Source of the DNA: Candidatus Multivorans sp.
Lineage (GTDB): Bacteria > Acidobacteriota > Thermoanaerobaculia > Multivoradales > Multivoraceae
Length of the DNA stretch: 64,000 bases
Direction of reading: 5' to 3'
NCBI GenBank assembly: GCA_965247095.1
Contig: OZ251997.1
Location: forward strand, 416,001-480,000
Shown piece by piece: positions 25,581 through 48,469 of this stretch. Position 1 is the first letter of the stretch; each line of letters opens with the position of its first letter. Position numbers and translations under genes: made by a program. Below the pieces are notes generated by a model, which made no database searches, was not told the DNA's origin, and saw only the letters and a list, made by a program, of their open reading frames with translations.

Positions 25581-26576
25581 TCATAGGTTGTAAGCGTGCC
25601 GAATCGCCGCCGCCGCCAGCAGACGCGCCGGATCAAACAACGGCCGTCCCGCCGCCTCCGCTCCGCCCAGGGCCAGCGGAATCTCCGTACAACCCGCCAC
25701 CAGCACATCGACGCCGGCGTCCCCGACCAGCCTCCCGGCCGCCTCCTCCAGCAGCACCCGTGCCCGCGGCGACCCGCCGTCCGTCTTGATCCCGCCGCCT
25801 CGATGCCGTCCATTGACCCAGGGCCCGTAGATCGCCTCCATGACCGCGCGGAGCTGCAGCGCTTCGCCGTCCTCCAGGTCGAGCGGGCTCACCGCCCGAA
25901 GGCCACGGGCCTCCAGCGGATCGTGGTAGAGCCGCGAGCGCAGCGTGCCGGACGTGGCGAGCAGGCCCACCCGCCCGCCAGGCGCGATGCGCTCCGCCTC
26001 GTCGGCCGTGACCTCGACCAGGCTGAGGATCGGCAGCGGGCTCTCCTCGCGCAGTGGCGCCATCCGTGCGCCCGATGACGGGCGCACGGACTGGTTCGCG
26101 GGTGACGCGGGACCGCGCCACCCGGGTGTCATCCATGCGCCCGATGACGGGCCCATGGACTGGTTCGCGGCTGGCGCGGTCCCGCGCCACCCGGGTGTCA
26201 TCCATGCGCCCGATGACGGGCCCATGGACTGGTTCGCGGCTGGCGCGGTCCCGCGCCACCCGGGTTCCAGGAACAGGTGCGCTGTATTGCAGGCGACCAC
26301 GGCGAAGTCCGCTCCGGCCCGTCGCACCCGTTCCAGGCTCCGAAGCAGCACCGGGCTCGGGTCCTCCGCGTGGCCCAGGAAGGCTTCGGTCCGGTCGGGG
26401 GTCTGCGGAATGCTGGACAGCACCCATTCCGGGAAGTCCTGATCCGCCGTGGCGCCAGTCAACTCACGCGCCGCCTCCAGCAGCTTCCGCTCGAAGTCGA
26501 GATGGGCGAAGGGTCCGAGGCCCCCGACGATCCCTATCAGACGCTGCTGCCGCATGCGTTGAGTGGTCCTCGGCAT
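25581..26576 (-). CDS. Aspartate/amino-acid racemase carrying a 69-aa in-frame repeat insertion
   Basis: IGIVGGLGP, PDRT, VACNTAH, GLLATSGT and AGCTEIP two-Cys racemase motifs. Confidence 0.88.
   Translation of the reverse strand: MPRTTQRMRQQRLIGIVGGLGPFAHLDFERKLLEAARELTGATADQDFPEWVLSSIPQTPDRTEAFLGHAEDPSPVLLRSLERVRRAGADFAVVACNTAHLFLEPGWRGTAPAANQSMGPSSGAWMTPGWRGTAPAANQSMGPSSGAWMTPGWRGPASPANQSVRPSSGARMAPLREESPLPILSLVEVTADEAERIAPGGRVGLLATSGTLRSRLYHDPLEARGLRAVSPLDLEDGEALQLRAVMEAIYGPWVNGRHRGGGIKTDGGSPRARVLLEEAAGRLVGDAGVDVLVAGCTEIPLALGGAEAAGRPLFDPARLLAAAAIRHAYNL
26055..26269. repeat. Three head-to-tail copies of the 69-bp double-hairpin element
   Basis: CATCC recurs at 26061, 26130 and 26199 (period 69); encodes 3 x 23 aa (PGWRGTAPAANQSMGPSSGAWMT-like) in the racemase. 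Confidence 0.95.
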
Positions 26577-26640
26577 ACGCGGATCATCCTAGCTTCCGTG
26601 GTGCTTCACCTGCCGATGGGGGCAGTGTCGCTGGCGAGTC

Positions 26641-27093
26641 GTGGATGCGCTGATGAACGAAATTGACTCGCACGCGAGCAATGATGCCGAAACCGAGCAA
26701 GTGCTCTTGAGGATGGCTGAATTCACGCACTTGCAGCGTTTGTTCCGTGCAGTTCTCGACGGACAAGTGGTGCTCACCGGTATGGACCTGGGTGGGCTGA
26801 CCAAACTGGCGAGCGAAACCGCAGGAACCGTGAATCGAGCGGAGACGCTGGACTGGTTGCCGCTTTTTCGGTTGGAGGCTTCGATGGTCGCGCTTGAATC
26901 GCTTGTAGAAACGCCAGCCGAGTTGCTGGAACTCGGAAGTCAGATAGCAGAGAAAAGGTTATCGCTCGGATTGGACAAACAAGAGGCGCTCTACCGGACG
27001 CTGGAAGACTCGGGCTGCCCGGCGCCACGTACATCACGAAGCTTTATTGATGAAGTGCTCGAGGGAGAAGATGAAGACATCGTACGAGCTTGA
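26641..27093 (+). CDS. Hypothetical protein (more AT-rich codon usage)
   Basis: Acidic 150-aa ORF with natural-looking composition; start may be ATG 26653. Confidence 0.55.
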   Translation: MDALMNEIDSHASNDAETEQVLLRMAEFTHLQRLFRAVLDGQVVLTGMDLGGLTKLASETAGTVNRAETLDWLPLFRLEASMVALESLVETPAELLELGSQIAEKRLSLGLDKQEALYRTLEDSGCPAPRTSRSFIDEVLEGEDEDIVRA

Positions 27094-27199
27094 TTTGTGG
27101 GAAACCTAGGTGCGAATGGCTTGGGCCGCAGCCTGGAGATGGTCCTGACGGCCGGGTGAGTGCGGGGAGTGCTCAGACGGACCGGAGTTGAAGCGATCG

Positions 27200-27586
27200 T
27201 CAGGGCGCTGTGACCTTGGGGGACGCGCCCCTGGCCTTGCGAATGAAGCTGCGGTCGAATGTGAGCATGGTCTGGCAGTGGGCGGCAGCGCCAAGATGCA
27301 GCGCGTCTGCGAAGTCCATGCCCTTCTCTGCTCGATCGAGCGCCTCCCTGAGCAGGGACGGGCTCTCTACGGTGACCCCCGGCAGGCCCGAGAAGGCCTT
27401 CAGGGCCGCCGCGACATCCTCGCCGGAAAGCCCGTACACGCTGCGTAGGACCCACTCGCACTCGAGGAGAACGGTCGTGCTCACGAAGACACCCCCCGTG
27501 TCGATCACGCCCCTTGCCTTGCCGGCTTGTCCCGGATCGTCGCCGGTCAGGTATCGGACGACGACGTTGGTGTCAATCGCCTGCAT
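27200..27586 (-). CDS. VapC-family PIN toxin
   Basis: MQAIDTNVVVRYL, VLLECEWVL, MDFADALH, LTFDR. Confidence 0.9.
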   Translation of the reverse strand: MQAIDTNVVVRYLTGDDPGQAGKARGVIDTGGVFVSTTVLLECEWVLRSVYGLSGEDVAAALKAFSGLPGVTVESPSLLREALDRAEKGMDFADALHLGAAAHCQTMLTFDRSFIRKARGASPKVTAP

Positions 27587-27848
27587 GCCGTCGCCTGGCT
27601 TCGGCCAGTACACCGGCCCGCATCTCTTGAAGGGACTTCGGCGGGCTGTCGTAGGCCAGGCTGCCGAACACGTCTTCCGGCCGGGTTTCGGAAAACACGG
27701 GCGCCGGCTTGAGCAAGACGCCCTCGGAGGTGTTCTCCACGACGAGGCGTGTTCCGGCTACCCAGCGCAGCGCCCGACGGATGGCCTTCGGCAGGATGAC
27801 CTGCCCCTTCGTCGACACGGTGGTGGTAAGCGGTTCAGGCGTCGGCAT
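27573..27848 (-). CDS. AbrB/MazE-family antitoxin
   Basis: TTVSTKGQVILPKAIR AbrB motif; overlaps the toxin start. Confidence 0.9.
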   Translation of the reverse strand: MPTPEPLTTTVSTKGQVILPKAIRRALRWVAGTRLVVENTSEGVLLKPAPVFSETRPEDVFGSLAYDSPPKSLQEMRAGVLAEARRRHAGD

Positions 27849-27937
27849 TGATGGATTCCTCCTTCGCACCCGGTAAGGCGAAAGTAAGATACACCGTTCG
27901 GCGCCGTGAGCCAAGCGCAAACAGAGAATCAAGGGAA

Positions 27938-28114
27938 CGCGGCACGGTCGAGGCGATTCAGGTCGGCGCCCGAGGCGTCAACCTGGCGATCACGGGCAGC
28001 CGCTACGGCCCGGGCGGAACCAGGATCCACAGCATCGACGCCGTCTACCTGATCACGGAGGTGGAGGGCCGCTGGGGCATCCGCGCGGGTTCCGGCATGT
28101 CGCCTCGGCCCTGA
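27938..28114 (+). pseudogene. 3' relic of an NTF2/SnoaL-like protein gene
   Basis: VEAIQVGARGVNLAITGSRY...IDAVYLITEVEGRWGIRAGS* resembles an NTF2-fold C-terminus; no plausible N-terminus. Confidence 0.45.
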
Positions 28115-28160
28115 GCTGAACGGAGTTCCTCAGAACGCGATCCGCCGGATTCGGTCCACG

Positions 28161-28271
28161 GTCGCCAAGAACGATGCTTGGCACGACCAGGCGCCGCGCC
28201 GAACGCAGGGGCGCTTCGGCTGCCGCGAGCCCCTCCGCCCAGGCCGACAGCGCATTCGTGTCGAGAATCAC
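28161..28271 (-). pseudogene. Truncated VapC PIN toxin (first ~37 codons)
   Basis: GTGA overlap with the antitoxin; VILDTNALSAWAEG...VVPSIVLGD, after which PIN similarity is lost. Confidence 0.75.
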
Positions 28272-28561
28272 GGGATGTCGTCGGGCTCGAGCTTCTCGAA
28301 CTCGTCCTCGATCGTCTCGAGGACGGCACGGTGTTCGTCGCCGAGGTCGGCAAGTTCCCCGAATCCCGCCATCCAGGGCGGCGCCAGAGGAGCGGGCGCG
28401 GCGCGGTGCGAATCGGTATGACCCCGTGCGCTCGCCGCGTGTCGACTGAGCTGCTGTTCGACGGCGTCGGTGAAGAATCGTTTCAGCGTCATGCCGCGGA
28501 CCGCGGCGAAAGCCTTCGCGCGTCGGAAGGTGGTGTCGGGAAGCTCTATCGTCGTCTTCAT
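28268..28561 (-). CDS. VapB-like (RHH-type) antitoxin
   Basis: MKTTIELPD..FRRAKA.AA.RG.TLK.F..AVE; acidic C-terminus IEDEFE. Confidence 0.8.
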   Translation of the reverse strand: MKTTIELPDTTFRRAKAFAAVRGMTLKRFFTDAVEQQLSRHAASARGHTDSHRAAPAPLAPPWMAGFGELADLGDEHRAVLETIEDEFEKLEPDDIP

Positions 28562-28636
28562 TGACCCATATTGCCATATTTCCGGTGGCTGTCGCTCTCG
28601 ATGAAGAGGAGCCAGCGCTCGCTGTAGAGTGTGGAC

Positions 28637-29020
28637 ATGGACAGCGCTGCATCCTCGACGAGTCCCGGTTTCGTCGTCCGCCGCGCCGAGGACGCTCCGG
28701 CAAACCAAGTCGAACTCGGCACCGCGACGACCACTCAGGTGCTCCTCGGCGCCGACGACGGCACGCCGCACTTTGCGATGCGGCGGTTCCGCATGGAGGA
28801 CGGCGGGGGGATGCCGCTGCACACGAACCAGGTCGAGCACGAGCAGTACGTGCTCCGGGGCCGGGCGAGGGTCGTGCTGGGGGAGGAGACGGTCGAGGTC
28901 GGCGCCGACGACGTACTGCTGATCCCGGCAGGCCTGCCGCACTCCTACGAAGTGATCGAGGCGCCGTTCGAGTTCCTCTGCCTGGTGCCGAACCGGCCGG
29001 ACCGGATCGATCTGGTCTAG
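28637..29020 (+). CDS. Cupin-domain protein
   Basis: FAMRRF, MPLHTNQVEHEQYVLRG, IPAGLPHSY, FLCLVP. Confidence 0.88.
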   Translation: MDSAASSTSPGFVVRRAEDAPANQVELGTATTTQVLLGADDGTPHFAMRRFRMEDGGGMPLHTNQVEHEQYVLRGRARVVLGEETVEVGADDVLLIPAGLPHSYEVIEAPFEFLCLVPNRPDRIDLV

Positions 29021-29049
29021 AGGCGCAGGTGACCGTCCGCGGCTTCGGG

Positions 29050-30435
29050 ATGCGGGCGTTCGCCGCGATTCTGCTGGCGTTCGCGGTTCCGCTTGCGGCC
29101 GCGGCCGCTGCCGACGGCGAGACCCTGTCGCCGGACCTCCGGACCCGCACGGACGGCATCGACTGGCCGGGCTTCCTCGGACCGAACCGCGACTCGAAGT
29201 CGCCCGAGACGGGAATCCGCACCGACTGGGAGGCCGATCCGCCGCCGCTGCTCTGGCACCTCGAACTCGGGGATGGCTACGCGGCGCCCTCGGTAGCCCG
29301 GGGGCGGCTGTTCTACTTCACCCGCGTCCGCGACCGGGTGCGGCTCGTCGCGGTGCGGGCCGACAACGGCGAGGAGCTCTGGCGCTCGGAGTACCGGACG
29401 GACTACGAGGACTACTACGGCTACGACGGCGGGCCGCGTACGGCGCCCCTCGCCTCTGGCCCACGGGTCTATGCGGTGGGCGCCGACGGCTTCCTCCGCT
29501 GCCACCGGGTCGTCGACGGCGCCGTGCTGTGGGAGCGTGATGTGCACGCCGAGTACGGCGTCCAGCAGAACTTCTTCGGCGTCGCCAGCTCGCCCTGGAT
29601 CGAGGACGATCTGCTGATCGTGACGGTCGGCGGAAGTCCGCCGGGTTCGCCCGGCGTTCACAGCGGTCGCTTGAAGCCCAACGGCACCGCCCTGGTCGCG
29701 TTCGACAAGCGGACGGGCGAGGAGCGCTACCGCCTCGGTAACGATCTGGCCAGCTACGCGAGCCCGGTGGTCAGGGACATCGACGGCAAGCGGCGCGGCT
29801 TCCACTTCGCTCGCTCCGGCCTGATCGTCTTCGACCCGAAGGACGGCCGGGAACTCAACGCCTTCGGTTGGCGGGCGCGCCGGCTGACCAGCGTGAACGC
29901 CGCGAACCCGCTGGTCGTCGGCGCCCGGGTGCTGCTCACGGAGTCGTACGAGAAGGGGGCGGTCCTGCTCACGTACAACGAGGGTCCGGAAGGCGACGCC
30001 AGCGGCTTGCTACCGGTGTGGCAGGACGGCCCGCGCAACCAGGCGATCGCGGCGCACTGGAACACACCGGTCCACCACGAGGGGGTGGTCTACGTCTCGA
30101 GCGGCGAGAAGTCGCCGAGCGCGGAACTGCGAGCCGTGGATCTGTTGACCGGCGACGTTCACTGGAGCCAGCCGCGCCTCGCGCGCACCCAGTTGCTCCA
30201 CGTCGACGGCCATCTCGTGGTGCAGAGCGAGGTCGGCGATCTGCTGCTCGTCCGCGCGACCGCGGAGAGCTACCAGCAGGTCGCGCACCTGCGCCTTCAG
30301 GCGGAGATCGACGATCGGACCGTCGATCTGCTGCGCTATCCGGCCTGGGCGGCGCCGGTGCTGGCTCACGGTGTGCTCTACGTGCGCGGCTCGGACCGTC
30401 TGGCCGCCCTCGAACTCATCCCGCCGCCGGAGTAG
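29050..30435 (+). CDS. Secreted PQQ-like (BamB-type) beta-propeller protein
   Basis: Signal peptide; DWPGFLGP.RD, GYAAP, GPRTAP, GVASSP, AFDKRTG, SYASP, WAAPVLAHG.LYVR. Confidence 0.85.
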   Translation: MRAFAAILLAFAVPLAAAAAADGETLSPDLRTRTDGIDWPGFLGPNRDSKSPETGIRTDWEADPPPLLWHLELGDGYAAPSVARGRLFYFTRVRDRVRLVAVRADNGEELWRSEYRTDYEDYYGYDGGPRTAPLASGPRVYAVGADGFLRCHRVVDGAVLWERDVHAEYGVQQNFFGVASSPWIEDDLLIVTVGGSPPGSPGVHSGRLKPNGTALVAFDKRTGEERYRLGNDLASYASPVVRDIDGKRRGFHFARSGLIVFDPKDGRELNAFGWRARRLTSVNAANPLVVGARVLLTESYEKGAVLLTYNEGPEGDASGLLPVWQDGPRNQAIAAHWNTPVHHEGVVYVSSGEKSPSAELRAVDLLTGDVHWSQPRLARTQLLHVDGHLVVQSEVGDLLLVRATAESYQQVAHLRLQAEIDDRTVDLLRYPAWAAPVLAHGVLYVRGSDRLAALELIPPPE

Positions 30436-30439
30436 AGCC

Positions 30440-33400
30440 ATGGCCCGCGGCTCGATCCTCGTTTCCTGTTCGGCGGCCCGACGGCTGGCGGCGGCCGCCG
30501 GGTGGCTGCGCAAACGCCGGCACGGCGAGGAGGAGACGCTGCTGCTTGCGGCCTCGCGCGGCGCCGCCGACGACCTGGTCCGGGGCATGTCGGAGACAGG
30601 CCGGGGGATGCTGGGCGTTCATCGCGCGTCGCTCGACCAGTGGGCGTTGCAGACCGCGGCGCTTGAGTTGGCCGCCCGTGGACTGCGGCCGGTCACGCCG
30701 CTCGGAACCGAGGCGATGGCGGCGCGGGTCGCCCGCCTTGCCGCGGCGCAAGGAGAACTGGAGCGTTTGGAGCCGGTTGCCGACCTTCCCGGTTTCGCCC
30801 GCTCCCTGGCGGGGACGATCGGTGAGCTGCGCGCGGCAGGCGTTTCGCCCGGCGACCTGCTGAAGGACCACGGAACGCGCGACCTGGGCCGGCTGGTTCA
30901 CCGATTCGACGAGGAGATGACCCGTTTCGGGTTGGCGGATCCGGCGACCGTGCTTCGCTCCGCCGTCGTGGCAGTGGACCGGGAGCAGGTCGCTGTTCCC
31001 AAGGGATCGCTGTGGCTCGATCTGCCGCTTCGAAGCGCTAGCCAGGTCGCACTCTTGCGGGCGCTCGCCGCGCGCAGCCGGGACGTGCTCGCGACCGTGG
31101 CCGCGGGCGACCACGAGACGCTGGAGTGGCTGGGGTCGCTGCTCGGCGACGGGGCGGTGATCGATCTCGACCGGGAGGAAGCGGTCGACGCCGGGACTGC
31201 GGGCGGTCGTCGGCTGGCTCGGGTCCAGCGCTTCGTCTTTGAGACCGGAGCGGATGCGTCTTCGCCGCTTGACGGTACGCCAGGTGCGGGCGAGACGCCC
31301 GCGTTCCATCCGCGCGCCCGCGGACGGGCGCGCGGAGTGGTTCCCGGGTGGCGCGGGACCGCGCCACCCGGGTTCCCAGGCAGTGGAGCAGACGTGCCGG
31401 CCGGCTCTTCGGTCGACCTGTTCTCGGCGGCCGGCGAGGGCCAGGAGTGCGTCGAAATCGCCCGGCGCATCCAGCGCGCCGCCGCCGGGGGGCTTGCCTT
31501 CGATCGCATGGCGATCTTGCTTCGCCAGCCGGCCGCCTACCTGCCCCTGGTGGAGGACGCGCTCGGCCGCGCCGGCATCCCCGCCTACGTCACCCGGGGC
31601 ACGTTGCGCCCCAATCCGGCCGGCCGCGCCTTCCTTGCCCTGCTGGCCTGCGCGGGGGAGAGACTCTCGGCAAGCCGCTTCGCCGAGTACCTGTCCCTCG
31701 GTCAGACCCCCGAACCGGCGAAGGGCGGCAGACCGCCAAAGCGCGAGGTGCCCTGGGTCGAGCCGGCGGGCGATCAACTCGTCATCAAGTCGCCGGAGCT
31801 CTCTCGAGCGCGGGCGTCTCGCCCGCATTCTGCGACCGACGGCGCCGCGGCCACCGACGCTCGCGAAACCCAGGAAGAGGCAGCGCCCGCCGGCGCGCTG
31901 CGCGTCCCCTCCCAGTGGGAGCGCTTGCTGGTCGACGCCGCCGTGGTCGGCGGCGCCGAACGCTGGCAGAAGCGGCTCGCGGGCCTTGGCGCGGAGTTCC
32001 GGCTGCAACTGCGCGAGGCCGGGGACGAGGACGAAGGCCGCAGGGCTTACCTGGAGCGGCAGATCCGGCGCCTGGAGACGCTCCAGACGTTCGCGCTGCC
32101 CCTGATCGAGTTTCTCGACGCCCTGCCCGAGCACGCGGACTGGGGCTGGTGGCTCGAGCGTCTGCAGGAGCTGGCGACGATGGCGCTGCGCCGGCCGGAG
32201 ACCGTGCTCGAGGTGCTTGCCGAGCTCCGACCGCTGGCGCAGGTCGACGAGGTGGGCTTGGCCGAGGTGGAGCGGATTCTGGGCGAGCGCCTGCGCTTCA
32301 GCCGCAGCCGGCCGCCGAAGCGGCGGTTCGGCCGGGTCTTTGTCGGTGGCGTCGAGGAGGCGGCGGGACGGAGCTTCGAGGTCGTGTTCGTGCCGGGTCT
32401 GGCCGAGGGCGTGTTTCCGCGGCGGGCGAAGGAGGATCCGCTGCTGCTCGACGAACGTCGCCGGACGCTGCGAGAGGCGGGCTACCGGTTGACCGAGGAT
32501 CTGGGGCGCACCCGGCGGGAGCAACTGCTGCTTCGCCTCGCCATCGGCGCCGCGAGTCGCTGGCTGGTCGTGTCGTATCCCCGGGTCGACCTGGTGCAGG
32601 GGCGCGCCCGGGTGCCGTCGCTGTACGCGCTCGATGTGCTGCGGGGCGCCGAGGGGCGCCTGCCGGACCTCGACGCGCTCGGCCGGCGTGCCGCGGCCGC
32701 CGGCGCCGCGGTGGTCGGCTGGCCGGCGCCGGCCGAACCCGAGGACGCGGTCGACGAGGCCGAGTTCGATCTCGCCCTGCTGCGGCCGCTCCTGGTCCCG
32801 GGCGCCCCGGTCGCGGAGCGCAGAGGACGGGCGCGCTTCCTCCTCGAGTCGAACCCGCACCTCAAGCGTGCCCTGGAGGCGCGCGGCCGGCGCTGGCGGC
32901 GACCCTGGTTCCCGGTCGACGGCCTCGTGGACGCGAGCGCCGAAGCCAGGGAAACGCTGGCCGCCCAGCGCATCGGCGCGCGCTCCTACTCGCCGACCGC
33001 GCTCCAGAACTTCGCCGCCTGCCCCTACCGCTTCTTCCTCCAGGCGGTGCTCTACCTCAGGCCCCGCGAGGAGCTGGTCCAGCTCGAGCAGATGGACCCG
33101 ATGACCCGGGGCAGCATCTTCCACGAGATCCAGTTCCGCCTGTTCGGCGCCTTGGAGGCGGCGGACCTGCTGCCGGTGGCGCCGAGTTGCCTGGCGAGGG
33201 TCTTCGAACTGCTCGACGAGGTGCTCGCGCGGAGCGAACGCGACTACCGGGAGGAACTCGCGCCGCCGATCGAGCGCGTCTGGAGGGCGGAGTTCGAGGG
33301 CCTGCGGGCCGACCTGCGCGGCTGGTTGCGGCAGGTGGCGGACGAGGGCGGCCAGTGGAAGCCCATTCACGCCGAACTCTCCTTCGGTCTCAGGCGGTCC

Positions 33401-33901
33401 GGGGACCGGGATCCGCGCAGCAAGCGGGCGCCGGCGGAGGTGCTCGACGGGGCGCTGCTGCGCGGCTCGATCGACCTCGTCGAGGAGGACGCGGGCGGTC
33501 GGCTGCGGGTGACCGACCACAAGACCGGTCGCGCCGTTCACGCCGGCGGGGGCCTGGTGATCGGCGGCGGCAAGGTGCTGCAGCCGGTGCTCTACAGCCT
33601 GGCCGCGGAGCACGTGCTCGAGCGGGACGTGGTCTCGGGGCGGCTCTTCTACTGCACCCAGCGGGGTGGCTACAGCACGGTCGCCGTGCCGCTCGACGAG
33701 CGGAGCCGCGGCGCCGCCCGCCGGCTGCTGGACGCGGTGGACGGGGCGCTGGAGGACGGTTTCCTGCCCGCGGCGCCGGCGAAGGACGAGTGCCGGTACT
33801 GCGACTACCGGCGGGTGTGCGGCCCCTACGAAGAGTTGCGGGTCCAGCGCAAGGACGCGACGCGGCTCCACGATCTGCAGGCGATTCGGAGCGAGCGGTG
33901 A
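30440..33901 (+). CDS. addB: AddB/RexB-like protein with C-terminal PD-(D/E)XK nuclease and 4-Cys Fe-S staple
   Basis: SPTAL..FAACPY, RGSIFHE, LRGSIDLV, VTDHKTG, LQPVLY, C..C.Y...C; directly upstream of a UvrD-like helicase-nuclease. Confidence 0.8.
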   Translation: MARGSILVSCSAARRLAAAAGWLRKRRHGEEETLLLAASRGAADDLVRGMSETGRGMLGVHRASLDQWALQTAALELAARGLRPVTPLGTEAMAARVARLAAAQGELERLEPVADLPGFARSLAGTIGELRAAGVSPGDLLKDHGTRDLGRLVHRFDEEMTRFGLADPATVLRSAVVAVDREQVAVPKGSLWLDLPLRSASQVALLRALAARSRDVLATVAAGDHETLEWLGSLLGDGAVIDLDREEAVDAGTAGGRRLARVQRFVFETGADASSPLDGTPGAGETPAFHPRARGRARGVVPGWRGTAPPGFPGSGADVPAGSSVDLFSAAGEGQECVEIARRIQRAAAGGLAFDRMAILLRQPAAYLPLVEDALGRAGIPAYVTRGTLRPNPAGRAFLALLACAGERLSASRFAEYLSLGQTPEPAKGGRPPKREVPWVEPAGDQLVIKSPELSRARASRPHSATDGAAATDARETQEEAAPAGALRVPSQWERLLVDAAVVGGAERWQKRLAGLGAEFRLQLREAGDEDEGRRAYLERQIRRLETLQTFALPLIEFLDALPEHADWGWWLERLQELATMALRRPETVLEVLAELRPLAQVDEVGLAEVERILGERLRFSRSRPPKRRFGRVFVGGVEEAAGRSFEVVFVPGLAEGVFPRRAKEDPLLLDERRRTLREAGYRLTEDLGRTRREQLLLRLAIGAASRWLVVSYPRVDLVQGRARVPSLYALDVLRGAEGRLPDLDALGRRAAAAGAAVVGWPAPAEPEDAVDEAEFDLALLRPLLVPGAPVAERRGRARFLLESNPHLKRALEARGRRWRRPWFPVDGLVDASAEARETLAAQRIGARSYSPTALQNFAACPYRFFLQAVLYLRPREELVQLEQMDPMTRGSIFHEIQFRLFGALEAADLLPVAPSCLARVFELLDEVLARSERDYREELAPPIERVWRAEFEGLRADLRGWLRQVADEGGQWKPIHAELSFGLRRSGDRDPRSKRAPAEVLDGALLRGSIDLVEEDAGGRLRVTDHKTGRAVHAGGGLVIGGGKVLQPVLYSLAAEHVLERDVVSGRLFYCTQRGGYSTVAVPLDERSRGAARRLLDAVDGALEDGFLPAAPAKDECRYCDYRRVCGPYEELRVQRKDATRLHDLQAIRSER
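31283..31380 (+). repeat. REP-like hairpin filled with one 69-bp element, in frame inside the addB-like gene
   Basis: GCGGGCGAGACGCCCGCGTTCC[ATCC...CCCGGGTTCC]CAGG; junction hexamers at 31302 and 31371 are 69 bp apart. Confidence 0.9.
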
Positions 33902-33906
33902 CCCCG

Positions 33907-38378: not shown

Positions 38379-38417
38379 GGCGCTAGGATTTCTCCTCGCC
38401 AAGGGGAGAAATCGACC

Positions 38418-39155
38418 TCACACCTTTGCTCTGAGCGGAACGCGTGGACGCCATTTGACCGTCCCCTTGCCGTTCACGAAGACCTCGCCCAAGGAGCACT
38501 TCTCCCTGACATATATGGCGAATCCCTCCTCTGCGATCGTCCCCACAACCTCGCGGTCCACGACGAGGTCGAATACCTCCCGCCTTCGGAGTGTCGCCCC
38601 CTCGCGGGGAAGAATGAGCCGAAAGCCGGGAGGAGCATCGCTCGGTACTTGACCGACGTTGGATAGCTCCTTCGCAGCGCGCTCCCACGCGTCTCGGGCC
38701 GATGTCGGGTCGGGCGCCAAGCCGGATCCGCGTGCGGCATCCTCGGCTTGAGTCGCCGAAGCGGCGGTTCCTGCCGGCTTCCGCTTGTCTACTGGAACAG
38801 CGCGCCCAAGGTCAGAGCTGGCTGCGTCATTGGCGGTGGGGAGAGTGGACTTGGCGTCAGGGTCGCTATTGCCTGCGCCGCCGGGTTTGTCCGGTTCGCT
38901 GTCAAGTTTGTAGACGACCTGCCCTTCGGGAACGCCGGCTCTCATCTCGTCCTCCAACCGGTTCACGAGCGCCGGAGGCCACCCGTAGTAGCGGGCCGCT
39001 TCGCGCAGATTCACGAATCGGACAGCGGTGCGCTCGGCCTGCGCCAGCGTAACCGCGTCCAGCCGGCCTCGACGGATCGCCGCCCTGACCGCCGGCACCG
39101 TCACACCGGCCAGTCGCGCGGTGAGCTTGATTGAGAGAAGAACGATACCGGCCAC
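38418..39155 (-). CDS. Hypothetical protein with possible N-terminal HTH
   Basis: LSIKLTARLAGVTVPAVRAAIRRGRL resembles an excisionase-type HTH; low-complexity linker; purine-rich upstream sequence. Confidence 0.5.
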   Translation of the reverse strand: MAGIVLLSIKLTARLAGVTVPAVRAAIRRGRLDAVTLAQAERTAVRFVNLREAARYYGWPPALVNRLEDEMRAGVPEGQVVYKLDSEPDKPGGAGNSDPDAKSTLPTANDAASSDLGRAVPVDKRKPAGTAASATQAEDAARGSGLAPDPTSARDAWERAAKELSNVGQVPSDAPPGFRLILPREGATLRRREVFDLVVDREVVGTIAEEGFAIYVREKCSLGEVFVNGKGTVKWRPRVPLRAKV

Positions 39156-39212
39156 TGTTCTTGTTGTCCTCCGTCAACGTGTGACGAGAGGTTACTATAT
39201 GTCGCATCGTAA

Positions 39213-40343
39213 CTACAGCACCTCGCCGATGTAGCGCTCCCTCGCCAGACGCCAGAAGACGACCAGGAAGGCGGTCAACGGAATCGCCAGGATCATGCCG
39301 GCAATGCCGTTGAGGGCCGAGCCCCAGAAGAAGACGGCGACGATGATCGCCATCGGGTGCAAGCCCGTGCGATCGCCCATGATCCGCGGCGTCAGCACGT
39401 AGGCCTCTATGAGCTGGACGAGCACGAAGACGACCAGCACCCAGATCACCAGACCGATCCCGCCGCCCTGCTGCCAGTACGCGATCGGCAGCGCCACTGC
39501 CAGACCGACGATGCTGCCGAGGTAGGGGATGATGTTGAGGAAGCCCAGCATGAGTCCGAGGACCAGGCCGTAGCGCAGACCGGCGATGGAGAAGCCGACG
39601 GCGAACAGCGCGCCCTGGAGGAAGGCGATGACGAGCTGGCCGCGGAAGAACGCGACGAGGATGTCGATGAACTCCTGGATGAGATAGATCACGTCCTCAC
39701 GGGTCCTCGGCTTGAGGAAGGGGAAGAGGTGGTCCAACTTGCGGAAGCGGTCCGGCTCGACCATGAGGAAGAAGCAGAGGTAGACCGGCAGCACGGCCCA
39801 GGCGAAGAGGGAGGCGAGGCCGGCGGCGATGCTCTGGAGTACCTCCACTGCCGTATCGCCGACGATGCCGAAGCTCGAGAGCAGGTTCGAGTCTCCACCC
39901 TCGAACGCCTCCCGCACCTGGATTGCGACCGGGTTCGTTTCCAGGAACTCGGTCACGACAGGCGAGATCTCGGCCGTCCAGTCGACGATGCGGTCCCACG
40001 CGCCGGGGAGCGCATCGAGGAGTTCGTCGATCTGTGACGCCGCCATGGCGCCGAAGAACCAGGCGAAGCCGACGACGGGTACGAGCAGGGACAGCAGCAC
40101 AGCGGCCACAGCGAGGATCTTCGGGAACCGCAGCCGTTCGTTGAGCAACTCATAGTACGGCCGGAGCACGAACGCCAGCACGGCCGCGACCGCCAGCGGC
40201 AGAAAGACGCTCGAGAAGGCGGCGAAGAAGGTGCCGATGGCCCAGAACAGCGCCACCACCGCGGCCAGGATGACGGCGGCCGCGGCGATCGTCGCCGCGG
40301 CAGCGACGGTGGCGCGCTGGCGTTCCGAGAGTTCGATCTGCAC
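39213..40343 (-). CDS. AI-2E family transporter
   Basis: FFRGQL, LNIIPYLG, QLIEAYVLTPRIMG..TGLHP, GMILAIPL. Confidence 0.9.
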   Translation of the reverse strand: MQIELSERQRATVAAAATIAAAAVILAAVVALFWAIGTFFAAFSSVFLPLAVAAVLAFVLRPYYELLNERLRFPKILAVAAVLLSLLVPVVGFAWFFGAMAASQIDELLDALPGAWDRIVDWTAEISPVVTEFLETNPVAIQVREAFEGGDSNLLSSFGIVGDTAVEVLQSIAAGLASLFAWAVLPVYLCFFLMVEPDRFRKLDHLFPFLKPRTREDVIYLIQEFIDILVAFFRGQLVIAFLQGALFAVGFSIAGLRYGLVLGLMLGFLNIIPYLGSIVGLAVALPIAYWQQGGGIGLVIWVLVVFVLVQLIEAYVLTPRIMGDRTGLHPMAIIVAVFFWGSALNGIAGMILAIPLTAFLVVFWRLARERYIGEVL

Positions 40344-40430
40344 GGGTGTTCGTCCTCGGCGGGACGCTACCACCTGGCCACCGGCAGCTTGAGCGAACGC
40401 CGCGCGCGGCCGCTCCGTATACTCCTTCGC

Positions 40431-41027
40431 ATGACCGTGACGCTGCTCGACCGGCCGCCGCGGACGCTGACGCGCAGTTTGGGGCCGTACCGCCGCTGCG
40501 ACTACATGGCCCTCCCCGATGAACCCCGCTGCGAGTTGATCCGCGGGAGGTTCTACCTGAGTCCCAGCCCTATTGTTCTCCATCAGTTGATCGTCGGGCA
40601 CCTGTTCCGCCTGTTCTTGGATGTGGCCGATCGCACCGGAGGAACCGCGATCGTGGCGCCGATGGATGTCCACCTGGCGGATCACTCGGTGGTCCAGCCC
40701 GACGTGATCTACGTCTCCCCGGAGCGCGGCGAGATCGTTCAGGATTGGATGGAAGGCGCGCCGGACCTCCTGGTCGAGGTGCTGTCGCCATCGACCGCGT
40801 CGCGGGACCGGGTCCACAAGCTCGACCTCTACGCGACGGCCGGCGTGCGGGAGTACTGGATCGTCGATCCGCGGCAGCGCCGGATCACGTTCCTTGTTCA
40901 CGACGGCGAGGGCTTCGCCGAGGGGGTGCCGGAAGGCGCTGGCTACGAGTCGCGCGTCGTGCCGGAGATCAGGCTGAACATGGACGAACTCTGGGCGGCG
41001 GTCGACCGGAAGTTCGCGAACGCCTGA
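40431..41027 (+). CDS. Uma2-family endonuclease-like protein
   Basis: ELIRG..SPSP..HQ, VQPDV, GAPDLLVEVLSPST...DR..KL.LY...GVREYWIVDP. Confidence 0.92.
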   Translation: MTVTLLDRPPRTLTRSLGPYRRCDYMALPDEPRCELIRGRFYLSPSPIVLHQLIVGHLFRLFLDVADRTGGTAIVAPMDVHLADHSVVQPDVIYVSPERGEIVQDWMEGAPDLLVEVLSPSTASRDRVHKLDLYATAGVREYWIVDPRQRRITFLVHDGEGFAEGVPEGAGYESRVVPEIRLNMDELWAAVDRKFANA

Positions 41028-41061
41028 GGGCCGCGCCGTAGAGCGGCCTGCTGTTCAGGTT

Positions 41062-41090
41062 CCTGGGAACGCGGGCATCCTGCCCGCATC
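41062..41090. repeat. REP-like hairpin, empty form
   Basis: CCTGGGAACGCGGGCATCCTGCCCGCATC; one mismatch to 48504-48532. Confidence 0.85.
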
Positions 41091-41174
41091 CGGGCCGAGG
41101 CCCGGCTCGGCTCGCGCTCGAAGCTCCGTTCAGAGCGCCCCCGCATTGCGGCTGGATGGATACGATCGGCCCCC

Positions 41175-42449
41175 ATGGCTGCGAAACACCGATTCCAAAG
41201 CGTCAAGGGGATGCGCGACCTCTTGCTGGACGAGGCCGCGGCCTTCGCGGCCGTAGAGGACACGGCGCGCCGGGTGTTCTCGCTCTATGGCTACCGCGAG
41301 GTGCGCACACCGGTGGTGGAAGAGACAGAGCTGTTCGTGCGCGGAGTCGGCGAAGGCAGCGAGATCGTCGGCAAGCAGATGTACACCTTCGACGACAAGA
41401 AGGGGCGCAGCCTGACGCTCCGGCCCGAGAGCACGGCGGCGGTGGCGCGGGCCTATCTGCAGCACGGCATGGCGTCCTGGCCCCAGCCCGTCAAGGTCTT
41501 CTACATGGGGCCGCACTTCCGCTACGAGCGGCCGCAGGCGGGCCGCTACAGGCAGTTCCACCAGATCGGCGCTGAACTGATCGGCGATCCGGGGCCCTAC
41601 GGCGACGCGGAACTCCTGGTCATGCTGCTGCGCTTTCTGGAGGAACTCGGCTTTGAGGACCTGGAGGTGGGCCTCAACTCCGTGGGCGATCCGGACTGCC
41701 GCCGGCGCTACTCCGGGCTGCTGCGCGAGTACCTCGAACCGCATCGGGACGAGTTGGGCGCCGACAGCCGTCGCCGCCTCGAGACGAATCCGCTCCGCAT
41801 CCTCGATACGAAGGCGCCGGTGGAGCGGAAACTGCTCGAGAGGGCGCCGCGCCTGCTCGATGTGCTCGGGGACGGGGCCCGCCGGCACTTCGAGGTAGTG
41901 CGCGAACAGCTCGAACGGTTCGGCGTCGCCTACCGGGTCGACGATCGGCTGGTGCGCGGCCTCGACTACTACACGCGGACCGTGTTCGAGATCACCTCGG
42001 CGGCACTGGGCGCGCAGAACGCGATCCTGGGCGGCGGCCGCTACGATGGCCTGATCGGCGAGCTCGGCGGTCCGAGCGTGCCCGGGATCGGCTTCGCGAT
42101 CGGCGAGGACCGGCTGGTCGATGTGCTGCCGGCGGCGTCGCCGGCGCGGGCCGCCGGCGCGCCGCCGGTGAGTGTCCTCATCGTCGGCGAGGCCCACCTG
42201 CGGCAGGGTCTGGAGCTCACCGAGGAGTTGCGCGCGGCCGGTGTGCCGGCGATCTGCGACCTGGCCGCCGGCACGCTGAAGGCCGGTCTGCGCAAGGCGA
42301 ACCGCCGCGGATGCCGATGGGTCGTGCTGTTCGGGGAGGACGAAGAGGCCGCCGGGACGGTGGTGCTGAAGAACTTCGAGAGCGGCATCCAGGAGACGAT
42401 CCCGCGCGAGGGTTTCGCGGCCGCGATAGCGGCGAGGATTTCGCCCTGA
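41175..42449 (+). CDS. hisS: Histidine--tRNA ligase
   Basis: KGMRD, LRPESTA, FRYERPQAGRYRQFHQ, LVRGLDYY, GGGRYD. Confidence 0.97.
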   Translation: MAAKHRFQSVKGMRDLLLDEAAAFAAVEDTARRVFSLYGYREVRTPVVEETELFVRGVGEGSEIVGKQMYTFDDKKGRSLTLRPESTAAVARAYLQHGMASWPQPVKVFYMGPHFRYERPQAGRYRQFHQIGAELIGDPGPYGDAELLVMLLRFLEELGFEDLEVGLNSVGDPDCRRRYSGLLREYLEPHRDELGADSRRRLETNPLRILDTKAPVERKLLERAPRLLDVLGDGARRHFEVVREQLERFGVAYRVDDRLVRGLDYYTRTVFEITSAALGAQNAILGGGRYDGLIGELGGPSVPGIGFAIGEDRLVDVLPAASPARAAGAPPVSVLIVGEAHLRQGLELTEELRAAGVPAICDLAAGTLKAGLRKANRRGCRWVVLFGEDEEAAGTVVLKNFESGIQETIPREGFAAAIAARISP

Positions 42450-42505
42450 GTTGTGCGAGGATCGGCGGTTCGGGCCAAAGGTGGCCCGCCGCGAAGGACA
42501 AGCAC

Positions 42506-44258
<1,753 letters not shown>

Positions 44259-44272
<14 letters not shown>

Positions 44273-45455
44273 GGTTGCCTTGGCCGACCACGCCGCGGAC
44301 GGCCCGCACCGTCTGACTCTCGCCCATCCCCGGGGCGTGAGCGAGATCCTCGTCGGCCCGGGTCTGCTCGCCGCGGGCGCCGAGGGCGCGCTCGGCGGCG
44401 TGTTGGACTGGTGCCGGGGCCGGGTCGTGTTCCTGGTCACGAGCGAGGCGCCTGCTCGTCACTGCGGCGCGGCGGCGCGGCGGTTGCTTGAGACCGCGGG
44501 CGCTGCGCGGATTGAGACGATCGAGGTTCCCGACGGCGAGGCGGCCAAGACAGTCGAGTGCGCAGCGTCCGTCTGGCGGGAGATGCTCGAGCGCGGCGGC
44601 AAGCGGGACAGTCGCCTGGTGACCCTCGGCGGCGGCGCGGTGGGCGATCTCGGGGGCTTCGCCGCCGGTTGCTTCCTGCGCGGCATCGACTACATCCAGA
44701 TCCCGACCACGCTGCTGGCCCAGGTCGACGCCTCGGTCGGCGGCAAGACCGGGGTCGACCTGCCCGGCGGCAAGAACACGGTCGGCGCCTTCCACCATCC
44801 CCGCTTCGTGCTCGCCGACATCGACTGCCTGCGCACGCTGCCGGTCGGCGAGCTGCGGTCCGGGTTGTTCGAGGTGGTCAAGATGGCGGCGCTGCTCGAT
44901 CTCCGTCTGTTGACGGTGGTGGAGGAGTCGCTGGAGCGGCTGCTCGCCGCCTGTGCCGAGTCGCTGACGCCGGTCGTCGCCGCCTCGATCCGGGCCAAGC
45001 TGGGCGTCGTCGAAGCGGATCTCGAAGAAGGGGACCGCCGGCGGCTGCTCAACTTCGGCCACACCCTGGGGCACGCGATCGAATCGGAGTTCGGCTACCA
45101 GGGCCTGCGTCACGGCGACGCGGTGGCTCACGGCATGAGGTTCGCCCTGCGTTTGGCGCTTCGGCGTGGGCTGGATCCGGAGTTCGCGGCGCGCCTGGAG
45201 CGGATGATCGACCGGCTGGCGCCGCCCGGACTCGGCGCCGTGGAGCGGCAGGGTGGCGTGCGCCTGGACGTGGACCGGCTCATCCAGGCCATGGGCCGGG
45301 ACAAGAAGGCGCGCGAGAGCGGTCTGGTCTGGATCCTGCCGGCCGCGCCGGGCCGGGGCGAGATCGTTGCCGATCTCGATCCGGCGCTGGTGCGGAGTGA
45401 ACTCCGGGCGTTTCTCGACGACTCCCGTGCCTCGTCGTCCGGGGACGCGCAGTGA
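44259..45455 (+). CDS. aroB: 3-dehydroquinate synthase
   Basis: DGEAAK, GGGAVGDLGGF, PTTLLAQVDASVGGKTG, LLNFGHTLGHAIE, HG.AV; start uncertain. Confidence 0.95.
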
Positions 45456-46447
45456 GCGTGGAAACCGGCGGTAGCGGCGCGGCTACGCCGGCGGTCGAGG
45501 GCGAAGCGCGCGAATCGCTGGAATCCGGAAGGGGCGGCCTGTGGAACCGGCTGCGGCGGGGCCTCGGCCGTACCCGGAAGGGACTGGTGGGCCGGATCAG
45601 CACCGCGCTTGGAGGCGCCGCGCGGATCGATGAGGACGTGCTGGAGCGGATCGAGGAGACCCTGATCGAGTCGGACCTCGGCGTCGAGACCTCGCTCGAG
45701 CTCGTCGAACGGCTGCGTCAGGCGGGAGATTCGGGGCCGATCGCCGCCGGCGACGAGTTCGCCCTACGGCAACTGCTGGTCGACGAAGTGGCGGTGCTGC
45801 TGCTCGACGCACCGCCTGCCGCGTTGCCGGCGACCCCGCGCATCACGCTGATGGTGGGCGTCAACGGTTCGGGCAAGACGACCTCCGCCGCCAAGCTGGC
45901 GCAGGCGTCCCTGGCCCGGGGCGAGAAGGTCCTGTTCGCGGCCGGCGACACCTTTCGTGCCGCGGCCGCGGAGCAGCTCGAGGTCTGGGGCGAGCGGCTG
46001 GGGATCGAGGTCGTCCGTCGCCCGTCGGGCGGCGACCCGGCGGCGCTCGTCTTTGACGCCGTTCAGGCGGCCGGGGCGCGCGGCGTCGATCATCTGATCG
46101 TCGACACGGCGGGCCGCCTCCACACCCGCGGTCAACTGATGGACGAGCTGTCGAAGGTCCACCGGGTCACCCGGCGCGCGGCCGGCGACGCCTGGAACCT
46201 CTTCACCCTCCTGGTGGTCGATGCCGGCAACGGCCACAACGCGCTGGTGCAGGCGCGCGAGTTCGGGGCGACGGTCCCGATCGACGCCGTGTTCCTGGCC
46301 AAGCTCGACGGCACGGCAAAGGGCGGCATGGCGGTGGCGATCGCCCGCGATCTGCGCCTGCCGGTCGCCTACCTGGGTGTGGGCGAGGGGGTGGAGGACA
46401 TCGTCGACTACAAGCCGCGGTCCTTTGCGGCCGCCCTGTTCGGGTGA
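45452..46447 (+). CDS. ftsY: Signal recognition particle receptor
   Basis: GVNGSGKTT, DTFRAAA, DTAGR, KLDGTAKGG, GVGE. Confidence 0.96.
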   Translation: MSVETGGSGAATPAVEGEARESLESGRGGLWNRLRRGLGRTRKGLVGRISTALGGAARIDEDVLERIEETLIESDLGVETSLELVERLRQAGDSGPIAAGDEFALRQLLVDEVAVLLLDAPPAALPATPRITLMVGVNGSGKTTSAAKLAQASLARGEKVLFAAGDTFRAAAAEQLEVWGERLGIEVVRRPSGGDPAALVFDAVQAAGARGVDHLIVDTAGRLHTRGQLMDELSKVHRVTRRAAGDAWNLFTLLVVDAGNGHNALVQAREFGATVPIDAVFLAKLDGTAKGGMAVAIARDLRLPVAYLGVGEGVEDIVDYKPRSFAAALFG

Positions 46448-47631
46448 GCGCCGTGGGCGCTGAGACCGCCGGACGTTTCGACGACGCCGATCGGCGGGCG
46501 ATGGGGCGGGCCCTGGCGCTGGCGCGGCGGGGCCGCCTGACCACGGCGCCGAACCCCATGGTGGGCGCGGTGGTCACGAAGAGCGGCGAGATCGTCGGCG
46601 CCGGCTGGCACCGTCGGGCCGGCGGCGAGCACGCGGAGGCGATGGCGCTCGACGCCGCCGGTGGCCGCGCCCGTGGCGGCACGATCTACGTCACGCTCGA
46701 GCCGTGCACCCATCACGGCCGGACCCCGCCCTGCGCGGGACGGATCCTGGAATCGGGGGTTGAGCGCGTGGTCTTCGCCCACCGCGATCCGAACCCCGAG
46801 GTGATCGGCGGCGGTGGCGAACGGCTGCGGGCCGCGGGCCTCCGGGTCGAGAGCGGGCTCCTGGCCGAGCAGGCGGTCGAGATGAATGTGCCCTTCCTGA
46901 CCCGCGTCCTTCACGAGCGGCCCGCCGTGACCCTGAAGTGGGCGATGAGCCTGGACGGCCGCATCGCGACGGCGACCGGCGACAGCCAGTGGATCTCGTC
47001 GCCGCGCGGCCGCCGTTGGGCGCTCGAACTGCGCGAGGAGCACCAGGCGATCGTGGTCGGCAGCGGCACCGCGCTGGCCGACGATCCGCGTCTCGACCGG
47101 CGACTGGGCCGGGCCGAGGGACCGATCGTGCGGGTGGTGCTCGATCGGCGGTTGCGGCTATCCCCGGGGGCGCGGATGTTCGAGGTCGAGGGGCCGGTTG
47201 TCGTCTACACGGCGGCGCCGGAGGGCGGCGCGAACGAGGGCGCGGACGAGGGCGCGGTGGAATGGGCCCGGCGGCGAGACCGTCTACGTGATGCGGGCGC
47301 CGATGTCGTCGTGATCGAGGCCGTGGCGCCGCCCGCGGTGCTGGCGGACCTGGCCGGGCGCGGCGTGTCGAACGTGCTCGTCGAGGGCGGTGCCGGGGTG
47401 CTGGAGGCGTTTGCGTCCTCGGGTGTCTGGGATCGGGCCGCGGTGTGCTGCGCGCCCCTCCTGATCGGCGGCGCGGCGGCCCTGGGCCCGATCGGCGGCG
47501 CCGGCGCGGAGAAGTTGGCTGACGCCTGGCGCCTCGATCGGCTGCGGGTTCTAAGGCGTGGCGCGGACGTGATTCTTGTAGGGTACCGGCAGGGATGTAT
47601 ACCGGAATTGTCACGGAGTGTGGCCGGGTAG
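46444..47631 (+). CDS. ribD: Riboflavin biosynthesis deaminase/reductase
   Basis: PNPMVGAV, HAE, TLEPCTHHGRTPPC, KWAMSLDGRIA, VEGG. Confidence 0.96.
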   Translation: MSAVGAETAGRFDDADRRAMGRALALARRGRLTTAPNPMVGAVVTKSGEIVGAGWHRRAGGEHAEAMALDAAGGRARGGTIYVTLEPCTHHGRTPPCAGRILESGVERVVFAHRDPNPEVIGGGGERLRAAGLRVESGLLAEQAVEMNVPFLTRVLHERPAVTLKWAMSLDGRIATATGDSQWISSPRGRRWALELREEHQAIVVGSGTALADDPRLDRRLGRAEGPIVRVVLDRRLRLSPGARMFEVEGPVVVYTAAPEGGANEGADEGAVEWARRRDRLRDAGADVVVIEAVAPPAVLADLAGRGVSNVLVEGGAGVLEAFASSGVWDRAAVCCAPLLIGGAAALGPIGGAGAEKLADAWRLDRLRVLRRGADVILVGYRQGCIPELSRSVAG

Positions 47632-48344
47632 TCGAGGCCCCCAAAGCCCCCAAAGCCCCGACGCGCCACGGTGCCATCCGACCGCCCGAAGACGGGCGCT
47701 CGGACTGGGTCGCGTGTGGCGCGAGCACGCGCCCCACGGGTTCCCGCATGGTGATCGGGCACTCGGCGGAGCTTGCGTCGCGGCTGGAGCCGGGCGCCAG
47801 CCTCTCGGTCGCCGGGGTCTGCCTGACCGTGGTGGAGCAGGGCGGCGCGAACGGAGTGTCGGGTAACGGCGCAGAGGGCGCCATCCCGGCCTGGTCCGCC
47901 TTCGATCTGTCTCCCGAAACGCTCAGCCGCACGACTCTTGGCGCTCTGGTTGACGGCGATGAGGTGAACCTGGAGCCGCCGCTTTCTGCCGGCGACCCCC
48001 TTGGCGGCCACTGGGTCCAGGGCCACGTCGACACGACGACCCGGGTGGCGAAAGTCGAGGAACTCGGAGACAACCGGGTCATCACGTTCGAAGTCCCCGC
48101 CGAGCTCGAGAACGGCCTCGTCCTCAAGGGCAGCGTGACGATCGACGGCGTCAGCCTGACGATCGCGGCGCTGGACGAAGAAACCTTCGACGTCGCCCTG
48201 ATTCCGCACACGCTCGAGGTCACCACCCTCTCGGAGCTGAAGCCCGGCGACCCGGTCAACGTCGAGGGCGACGTCCTCGCCCGGTACGTCCAGAAGTCCG
48301 TCGAGGCGGCCGTCGCCGCCGCCCTCGAGTCGGCCCGGCGTTGA
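47595..48344 (+). CDS. ribE: Riboflavin synthase (alpha chain) with an in-frame 69-bp element insertion
   Basis: MYTGIV, GVCLTV, ETL..T, VNLE, GGHWVQGHVD, KGSVTIDGVSLT, LIPHT. Confidence 0.93.
   Translation: MYTGIVTECGRVVEAPKAPKAPTRHGAIRPPEDGRSDWVACGASTRPTGSRMVIGHSAELASRLEPGASLSVAGVCLTVVEQGGANGVSGNGAEGAIPAWSAFDLSPETLSRTTLGALVDGDEVNLEPPLSAGDPLGGHWVQGHVDTTTRVAKVEELGDNRVITFEVPAELENGLVLKGSVTIDGVSLTIAALDEETFDVALIPHTLEVTTLSELKPGDPVNVEGDVLARYVQKSVEAAVAAALESARR
47670..47744 (+). repeat. Diverged copy of the 69-bp element inside ribE
   Basis: GGTGCC at 47670 and GGTTCC at 47739 are 69 bp apart; same two hairpins and linker as the other copies. Confidence 0.88.
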
Positions 48345-48374
48345 GAGGGCATCGCGGGGCCCTTGAGGCCCGCC

Positions 48375-48469
48375 CCTGGGAGCCCGGGTGGCGCCCCGCG
48401 CCACCCGTGAACCACTCCGTGCGCCCGTCTTCGGGCGCGCGGATGGCACGCGGGCATCTTGCCGGCATC
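48375..48469 (-). repeat. REP-like hairpin filled with a 66-bp variant of the element (intergenic, inverted)
   Basis: Minus strand GATGCCGGCAAGATGCCCGCGTGCC[ATCC...CCCGGGCTCC]CAGG. Confidence 0.88.

Follow-up and report, generated by a model that had tools for sequence, protein, structure and literature searches.

Repetitive extragenic palindromes (REPs) that lie within genes of Opitutus, Rickettsia and Thauera encode 20-30 residues and are found, in many cases, in replication or repair genes, according to Di Nocera et al. 2013 (PMC3733652). The same paper describes genes for REP-associated tyrosine transposases (RAYTs) whose flanks consist of REPs or of inverted repeats unrelated to REPs, one group of such transposases being specific to Acidobacteria, and composites of a REP with unrelated stem-loop repeats that reach hundreds of copies in Pseudomonas. 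Members of the IS200/IS605 group of insertion sequences (ISs) insert downstream of an adjacent motif and carry a related motif at their end, without duplication, and gene-less palindrome-associated transposable elements (PATEs) derived from them are known, as set out in PMC10055086. Here, we analyzed a window of 64,000 nucleotides (positions 416001-480000 of a single 4,617,209-bp contig, 67.7% G+C) from a genome of Candidatus Multivorans sp., hereafter G000, and characterized a double-hairpin unit (DH) and a second repeat (the short REP), which together form composites. We found that DH represents a new family, although the kind of selfish element to which it belongs is already known. It moves by site-specific insertion, as empty sites in relatives show, and copies with a length divisible by three (3n) survive in genes as extra 23-residue stretches.

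DH is like the REPs, the bacterial interspersed mosaic elements (BIMEs) and their RAYTs in being a high-copy GC-rich hairpin sequence, in having a single-copy Y1/HUH transposase between inverted repeats, in forming a two-repeat mosaic, and in placing units that encode 20-30 residues within genes, frequently those for DNA repair (here addB). In contrast to those systems, DH comprises 68 nt and two unlike hairpins rather than one palindrome of 20-40 nt, has a defined adjacent target motif, goes with a transposase that scores just under the curated RAYT level and resides in an acidobacterial (Thermoanaerobaculia) genus; the GTAG/CGTC tag is absent from the DH consensus and from the short REP. With IS200/IS605 elements and PATEs, DH shares left and right subterminal hairpins, insertion 3' of an adjacent motif, a similar motif at the 3' end, and the lack of target duplication and of inverted terminal repeats. 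However, it is far smaller, the only Y1 gene has inverted, RAYT-style flanks, and solo DH copies have no lagging-strand bias. In its mode of insertion DH also behaves as the Rickettsia palindromic elements (RPEs) do: it is palindromic, sits in frame in many unrelated genes (31 copies in 29 genes, three loci compared with orthologues), is absent from orthologues and is tolerated as peptide. It differs from them in its unrelated host lineage, in the presence of a candidate transposase with DH, in the mostly intergenic placement of its copies, and in having a neutral form that is not 3n long, so that a filter for 3n variants becomes visible. Finally, the REP doublets forming hairpins (REPINs) of Pseudomonas are likewise RAYT-linked, non-autonomous and present as a population of diverged copies, but in a REPIN one REP occurs twice, in inverted orientation, and the pair folds into a single long hairpin, whereas the two hairpins of DH fold separately. 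Our literature search returned no description of the DH family or of such repeats in Thermoanaerobaculia, and the supplements of PMC3733652, which lay outside that search, could hold related acidobacterial repeats. Since in-frame REPs, RPEs and composite units already appear in that paper, the novelty of DH is lower than a preliminary description of this DNA had assumed.

The preliminary description had reported six DH copies at four loci of the window. All six were recovered where it had placed them, with boundaries that we redrew (Table 1), and their alignment revealed a common plan made of a GTKCC junction, ATCC, hairpin A, a TGGTTC linker, hairpin B and GGGTTCC. A profile built from these six copies and run against the whole genome (E<1e-3) gave 167 matches, or 161 once opposite-strand shadows were removed, and 155 of these were near-full DH copies, so that the expected further copies do exist, in numbers well above chance expectation. 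Their lengths were 68 bp (94 copies), 69 bp (41), 67 bp (14), 66 bp (4), 65 bp (1) and 63 bp (1). The ordinary length is therefore 68 bp and not the 66 bp that had been proposed for intergenic units; the window's one intergenic copy is a 66-bp variant. No Rfam family matched the DH copies, the three unrelated hits all lying under their gathering scores. Six partial matches (292456-292507, 558567-558610, 327169-327221, 3566238-3566290, 3808553-3808603 and 1708931-1708968) comprise only hairpin A and part of the linker; since TGGTTC repeats the terminal GTTC motif, a cut within the linker may have left them as half elements.

The stems of the DH consensus measure 12 and 11 bp, are unlike in sequence, and are each paired within themselves. 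Across 142 distinct cores, 94.5% of stem cells were in standard pairs, and sliding the 3' partners by 1-3 columns reduced pairing to 29-49%. Double-sided changes occurred at 17 of the 23 stem pairs, whereas 300 column shuffles gave 5.8 such pairs on average and never more than 10; one pair of hairpin A, for example, was TA in 84 cores, AT in 12, CG in 11 and GC in 2. The compensatory changes first noticed in hairpin A of the window copies thus hold genome-wide and for both stems. This covariation indicates that selection, or repair acting on folded single strands, keeps the hairpins. Folding energies computed with DNA parameters were similar across classes: -31.0 kcal/mol for in-gene copies, -29.9 for other solo copies and -33.0 for composites. 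One DH copy, at 350369-350436, occupies the loop between the arms of a perfect 17-bp inverted repeat (CCAGGACCTTGCGCCGC ... GCGGCGCAAGGTCCTGG).

We used 74 solo copies, neither nested nor internal to arrays, to define the boundaries of the unit. Exactly five left-flank positions were conserved (G in 61, T in 63, G/T in 72, C in 61 and C in 71 of the 74), with no conservation 5' of GTKCC and hence a sharp edge. A conserved junction, as originally proposed, therefore exists, although its motif is G-T-K-C-C rather than (G/C)GYNYC. On the right, conservation extended through GGGTTC and the next base was free (G 30, C 28); this right motif belongs to the conserved element whatever the flank. The unit can be drawn either as ATCC...GGGTTCC after GTKCC or as CATCC...GGGTTC after GTKC, of which the latter agrees better with the logo, and DH lengths are unchanged under either choice. 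The left and right flanking 5-mers were identical in 7 of the 74 solo copies and in 23/140 overall (they differ in 117/140), and the consensus ends, CATCCGTG... and ...CCGGGTTC, are not inverted repeats. We therefore ruled out a classical miniature inverted-repeat transposable element (MITE) with target duplication.

Relatives of G000 carry empty sites at the loci of the window. At the racemase locus, where three units stand head to tail, 207 bp are absent from 9/9 and from a further 5/5 congeneric orthologues, all of which run straight across, and metagenome contigs from three runs, each of a different study, pass directly from 26059 to 26267 and so lack exactly these 207 bp. In these contigs GGCG is directly followed by CCAGG, which keeps the unusual left motif GCGCC, and the target therefore lies on the left. 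Since this triple is unique to G000 among 14 orthologues and two of its three units are identical, the racemase insert is young. The 69-bp DH of ribE is filled in G000 and in the congeners G042 and G055, and degenerate in G001; G043, G032 and nine further congeners lack it, and the empty site carries one GGYKCC. In addB, all six sub-clade genomes (G000, G024, G032, G042, G043 and G055) carry the short REP within the gene, and DH is present in G000 and G032 (2/6), exactly between the GTTCC and the CAGG of the short REP; a second short REP replaces DH in G042 and G055, and G043 and G024 are without DH. The intergenic site at 48379 is filled in G043 as in G000 and is an uninterrupted short REP in G055. 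The clean insertions that had been predicted from G000 thus have empty counterparts at the racemase, ribE and addB sites.

The ribE region showed additional variation. The ribE genes of G001 and G003 (loci L012 and L013) have a second site, after VVEQGG, with long extra segments, one of which holds a ...NQ... peptide reminiscent of an antisense DH reading. In G024 (G024:C1:3542711-3547368), the halves of a ribE-region query lie ~4.6 kb apart, with something large at or near the 5' end of ribE. Just 5' of the DH insert in G000, window positions 47636-47662 contain a 9-bp tandem duplication (GCCCCCAAA twice) that adds three residues and is absent from G042, G055 and G043.

Insert length is filtered within genes. 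Using 3,580 genes (88% coding) from a home-made codon-score caller, we placed 31 of the 155 DH copies inside genes, 28 over gene ends and 96 in intergenic DNA. A 3n length was found for 26/31 in-gene, 12/28 gene-end and 8/96 intergenic copies (inside vs intergenic, p=2.6e-15), in agreement with the claim that coding and intergenic copies differ in length modulo three; for solo copies only, the figures were 21/25 in-gene vs 4/37 intergenic. In a stricter test, which scored whole segments and kept the 20 copies with a coding signal in one frame on both sides, 17/20 copies were 3n long vs 29/135 others (p=5e-8), the three exceptions being the 68-bp copies at 350369 (called intergenic), 540022 (a composite) and 724772. 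Codon scoring of short flanks was dropped as too noisy, with the 5th percentile of the true frame about equal to the 95th percentile of the wrong frame; it kept only 10 and 6 copies, all of them 3n long. In the 69-bp form, the additional base falls within the right half of 37/41 copies, with at least 10 different loop sequences (loop B), and within the left half of 4. Because these positions and sequences vary, the 69-bp form arose many times and was then sieved.

All six strand and frame combinations are in use, extending to the whole genome the three reading frames noted in the window, and 25 of the 31 in-gene copies are antisense to the host gene. One forward consensus frame contains a TGA in loop A, where several genes end (d3 about -51); in the addB copy loop A is CGGA, not ATGA, and the TGA stop of that consensus frame is gone. 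Because removal of the inserts from the RNA would leave no 3n constraint to be expected, they are most likely translated, the 3n filter being the evidence for this. In the racemase, the triple is read antisense as 3 x 23 residues and occupies residues 105-174, directly behind the stretch ACNTAHLFL, which is invariant in the orthologue alignment; the profile match of the enzyme is broken at residues 104/175 around it. In Asp/Glu racemases, this stretch holds a catalytic cysteine. A structure model of the racemase was rejected as too poor to place the insert on the fold (11 sequences, mean predicted local distance difference test (pLDDT) score 52.6), the insert lying within a segment of pLDDT <50 (residues 88-181). 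In the metatranscriptome run X21, no contig spanned the racemase array, and the run was uninformative on transcription or removal of the insert.

DH copies are also nested in the short REP. A loose short-REP pattern (GCGGGC-N3-6-GCCCGC-GTKCC) was followed by CAGG 135 times in the whole genome and by the ATCC of DH 70 times, and 70 DH copies are nested exactly in the short REP tail. The junction is mostly GTGCC in filled short REPs and GTTCC in uninterrupted ones. The addB copy belongs to this class: DH is present in the gene as first described, not alone but as part of a composite, with a short REP directly before it. Elsewhere in the genome, five short REPs form a tight head-to-tail array with a period of 26-27 bp (2072223-2072353). 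Many short REPs, filled and empty, have identical longer flanks, ...GGCCGGCGCTTCGCGCCGGAT and CAGGTCAGATCGTTCT... (for example at 7200, 215085, 867520, 1525163 and 1583113), which means that the short REP is itself part of a still larger repeat unit.

Table 1. DH units, short REPs and host genes in the window (window coordinates)
Feature	Position	Strand	Remarks
Three DH units, head to tail, 69 bp each	26062-26130, 26131-26199, 26200-26268	+	Inside the racemase gene
Asp/Glu-type amino-acid racemase gene (host), 331 aa	25581-26576	-	TIGR00035, 114.9 bits
Short REP hairpin in addB, GCGGGC-GAGAC-GCCCGC-GTTCC	31286-31307	+	Directly 5' of DH; CAGG tail 31377-31380
DH unit inside addB, 69 bp	31308-31376	+	Same strand as gene
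addB (host), AddB-like helicase-nuclease subunit	30440-33901	+	C-terminal PD-(D/E)XK domain
DH unit inside ribE, 69 bp	47676-47744	+	Same strand as gene, 81 nt past start codon
ribE (host), riboflavin synthase, 249 aa	47595-48344	+	TIGR00187, 167 bits; NF006767, 186 bits
Intergenic DH, 66 bp	48379-48444	-	Nested in degenerate short REP 48445-48466 (-); CAGG tail 48375-48378
Uninterrupted short REP	48508-48529	-	Empty target form (GTTCC, then CAGG directly)
Uninterrupted short REP	41066-41087	-	

DH was matched in 21 of 24 congeners and in none of 16 genomes that represent 15 other genera within the order. Public genomes scanned for the pattern yielded at least 114 stretches; among 80 matches listed, 79 were titled as metagenome-assembled genomes (MAGs) of Acidobacteria, Thermoanaerobaculia or Candidatus Multivorans. 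The remaining one of these 80 is an exact match to the DH core on a 10.8-kb contig (L135) from a MAG labelled Thermomicrobiales, which could reflect a binning error or a transfer. The short REP had 78-241 exact matches in only 8/41 congeners and 0-3 in the rest. According to GC skew, replication of G000 starts near 2.48 Mb and terminates near 1.09 Mb. The resulting replichores are very unequal (~3.2 and ~1.4 Mb); either this asymmetry is real, or a large rearrangement or a fault of the assembly underlies it.

The preliminary description had pointed to a RAYT or IS200-like transposase as a likely companion of the unit, and a single RAYT-like Y1 gene with inverted DH copies was indeed found. It is the one PF01797 match in the genome (34.9 bits vs a cut-off of 23), an open reading frame (ORF) of 214 aa of the Y1/HUH type at 2898172-2898813 of the genome (- strand). 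Among relatives of solved structure, E. coli TnpA-REP (4ER8, E=1.9e-7) comes closest, and its HUH and YIxxNPVK motifs align with those of the ORF. Inverted arrays of the short REP (3+3) form the immediate flanks of the ORF, and 1+1 inverted DH copies stand at their outer edge. We found no autonomous parent IS with DH ends in direct order, the only Y1 gene being inverted-flanked, in a search that did not include tnpB.

Together, these results make it reasonably probable, in our judgment, that DH, which inserts at GTKC(C) and is sieved for 3n length in genes, is a non-autonomous element moved as single-stranded DNA (ssDNA) in trans by an HUH Y1 transposase. It is from the IS200/IS605-like anatomy that we infer both the ssDNA route and a Y1 tyrosine transposase acting in trans. 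The element, of 68 nt (more rarely 69, 67 or 66), with two different subterminal hairpins and an invariant TGGTTC linker, inserts immediately 3' of GTKC(C) and ends in its own GTTC(C); it makes no target duplication and has no terminal inverted repeats. The candidate enzyme would be the product of the genome's single RAYT-like gene, bracketed as it is by inverted arrays of short REP and DH. The short REP tail, GTKCC followed by CAGG, matches this target exactly, which explains the 70 nested copies; the 3' end of the element recreates a target, which may help head-to-tail arrays to form. Insertions land in genes and spacers alike, and in genes only 3n, stop-free copies persist. Such copies have diverse +1 changes, mainly within loop B, or an altered loop A, and supply ~23 residues per unit in whichever frame they entered. 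The earlier proposal of a non-autonomous element that moves through ssDNA or RNA and adds protein loops is supported by copy number, length modulo three, strand and frame use, clean empty sites and the single flanked transposase, the ssDNA intermediate and the enzyme being inferred.

Several observations weigh against this reading. Gene positions come from our own caller, and 5/31 in-gene copies are not 3n long. Solo DH copies show no replication-strand bias (38 leading vs 42 lagging), although targeting of the lagging strand would predict one; a strand lean was seen in composites (27 vs 48, p=0.02) and in uninterrupted short REPs (49 vs 81, p=0.006). The GTGCC/GTTCC split between filled and uninterrupted short REPs fits one amplified composite founder as well as repeated nesting. 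The NCBIfam model REP_Tyr_transpos gave the transposase 79.8 bits vs a curated cut-off of 80, and its 99%-identical counterpart in G024, the closest relative, is flanked by 7+7 short REPs with a single DH on one side, so that the short REP is the tighter partner of the transposase. The G000-type transposase occurs otherwise only in G024; a 50-55%-identical type is found in 15 others, 9 of 10 loci of which have no DH within ~1.5 kb, and 8 genomes have no match, among them G032, which is nevertheless rich in DH and short REP. Counts over the 24 congeners (both DH and transposase in 15, DH without transposase in 6, transposase without DH in 1, neither in 2) show no clear association. Given this patchy distribution, the enzyme stands as a candidate for having moved the solo units, with no activity, circular junction or excision observed.

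The pattern at the short REP also bears on an unlikely alternative, in which the mobile unit is now the composite (~100 bp), copied by the RAYT via the short REP, and solo DH copies, most in-gene ones among them, are immobile relics of an older burst by a lost transposase. Composites are indeed more uniform than solo copies (consensus similarity 0.936 vs 0.894; folding -33.0 vs -29.9 kcal/mol), the GTGCC junction variant is common to them and rare in uninterrupted short REPs, and many have identical longer flanks; moreover, the RAYT is flanked mainly by short REPs, and the short REP is abundant in only 8/41 congeners, whereas DH is genus-wide. Yet the solo units of the racemase changed recently, being unique to G000 among 14 orthologues, absent from near-identical metagenome contigs and in two cases identical to each other, and at the addB site DH is found in 2/6 genomes and the short REP in 6/6. 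Comparably unlikely, in our estimate, is that DH is a 68-nt 'ends-only' peel-and-paste transposon with a RAYT-type enzyme and a GTKC target, whose scarless excision would make the 23-residue inserts reversible; continued selection would then keep the hairpins intact even within coding sequence.

A module selected by the host (a terminator, an mRNA-stability hairpin, a protein-binding site or a peptide loop) and spread by recombination would account for stem pairing kept by compensatory change and for the stability kept in genes (-31.0 kcal/mol), and REPs are reported as RNA elements in PMC3733652. We regard such a module as very unlikely, given that the six strand and frame combinations leave no single peptide to be selected, presence and absence are scattered among sister genomes, copies occur in every intergenic configuration, and one insert adjoins the conserved CNTAH stretch of the racemase. 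The in-gene copies could instead mark dead genes, with open frames an accident of GC-rich, stop-poor sequence, as 5/6 consensus frames are stop-free and the racemase insert is young and beside a conserved motif. Accident would not enrich 3n lengths among in-gene over intergenic copies (26/31 vs 8/96), however, 20 copies are flanked on each side by coding signal in a single frame, and the ribE and addB inserts are common to several species with intact frames, which makes this view highly improbable. It is hardly credible that DH is an ordinary MITE of a DDE transposase whose conserved 5-mer is a site-specific target duplication: a similar 5-mer does stand on both sides of each copy, but the two are identical in so few (23/140, or 7/74 solo), the ends are not inverted repeats, and the right motif is inside the element.

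The movement of RAYT-linked repeats has been argued mostly from a few proteobacterial models, and DH provides a readable case in a little-studied acidobacterial genus, with a sharp target motif, filled and empty sites in sister genomes, nesting, and a neutral length of 68 bp that exposes the in-frame filter. For annotation, DH inserts matter because they break up profile matches and can lead gene callers astray. For the host, they indicate that ordinary enzymes can gain 23 to 69 residues from selfish DNA, once beside a conserved active-site stretch. If DH were indeed an ends-only transposon, it would represent a natural way to add, and then remove, protein loops.

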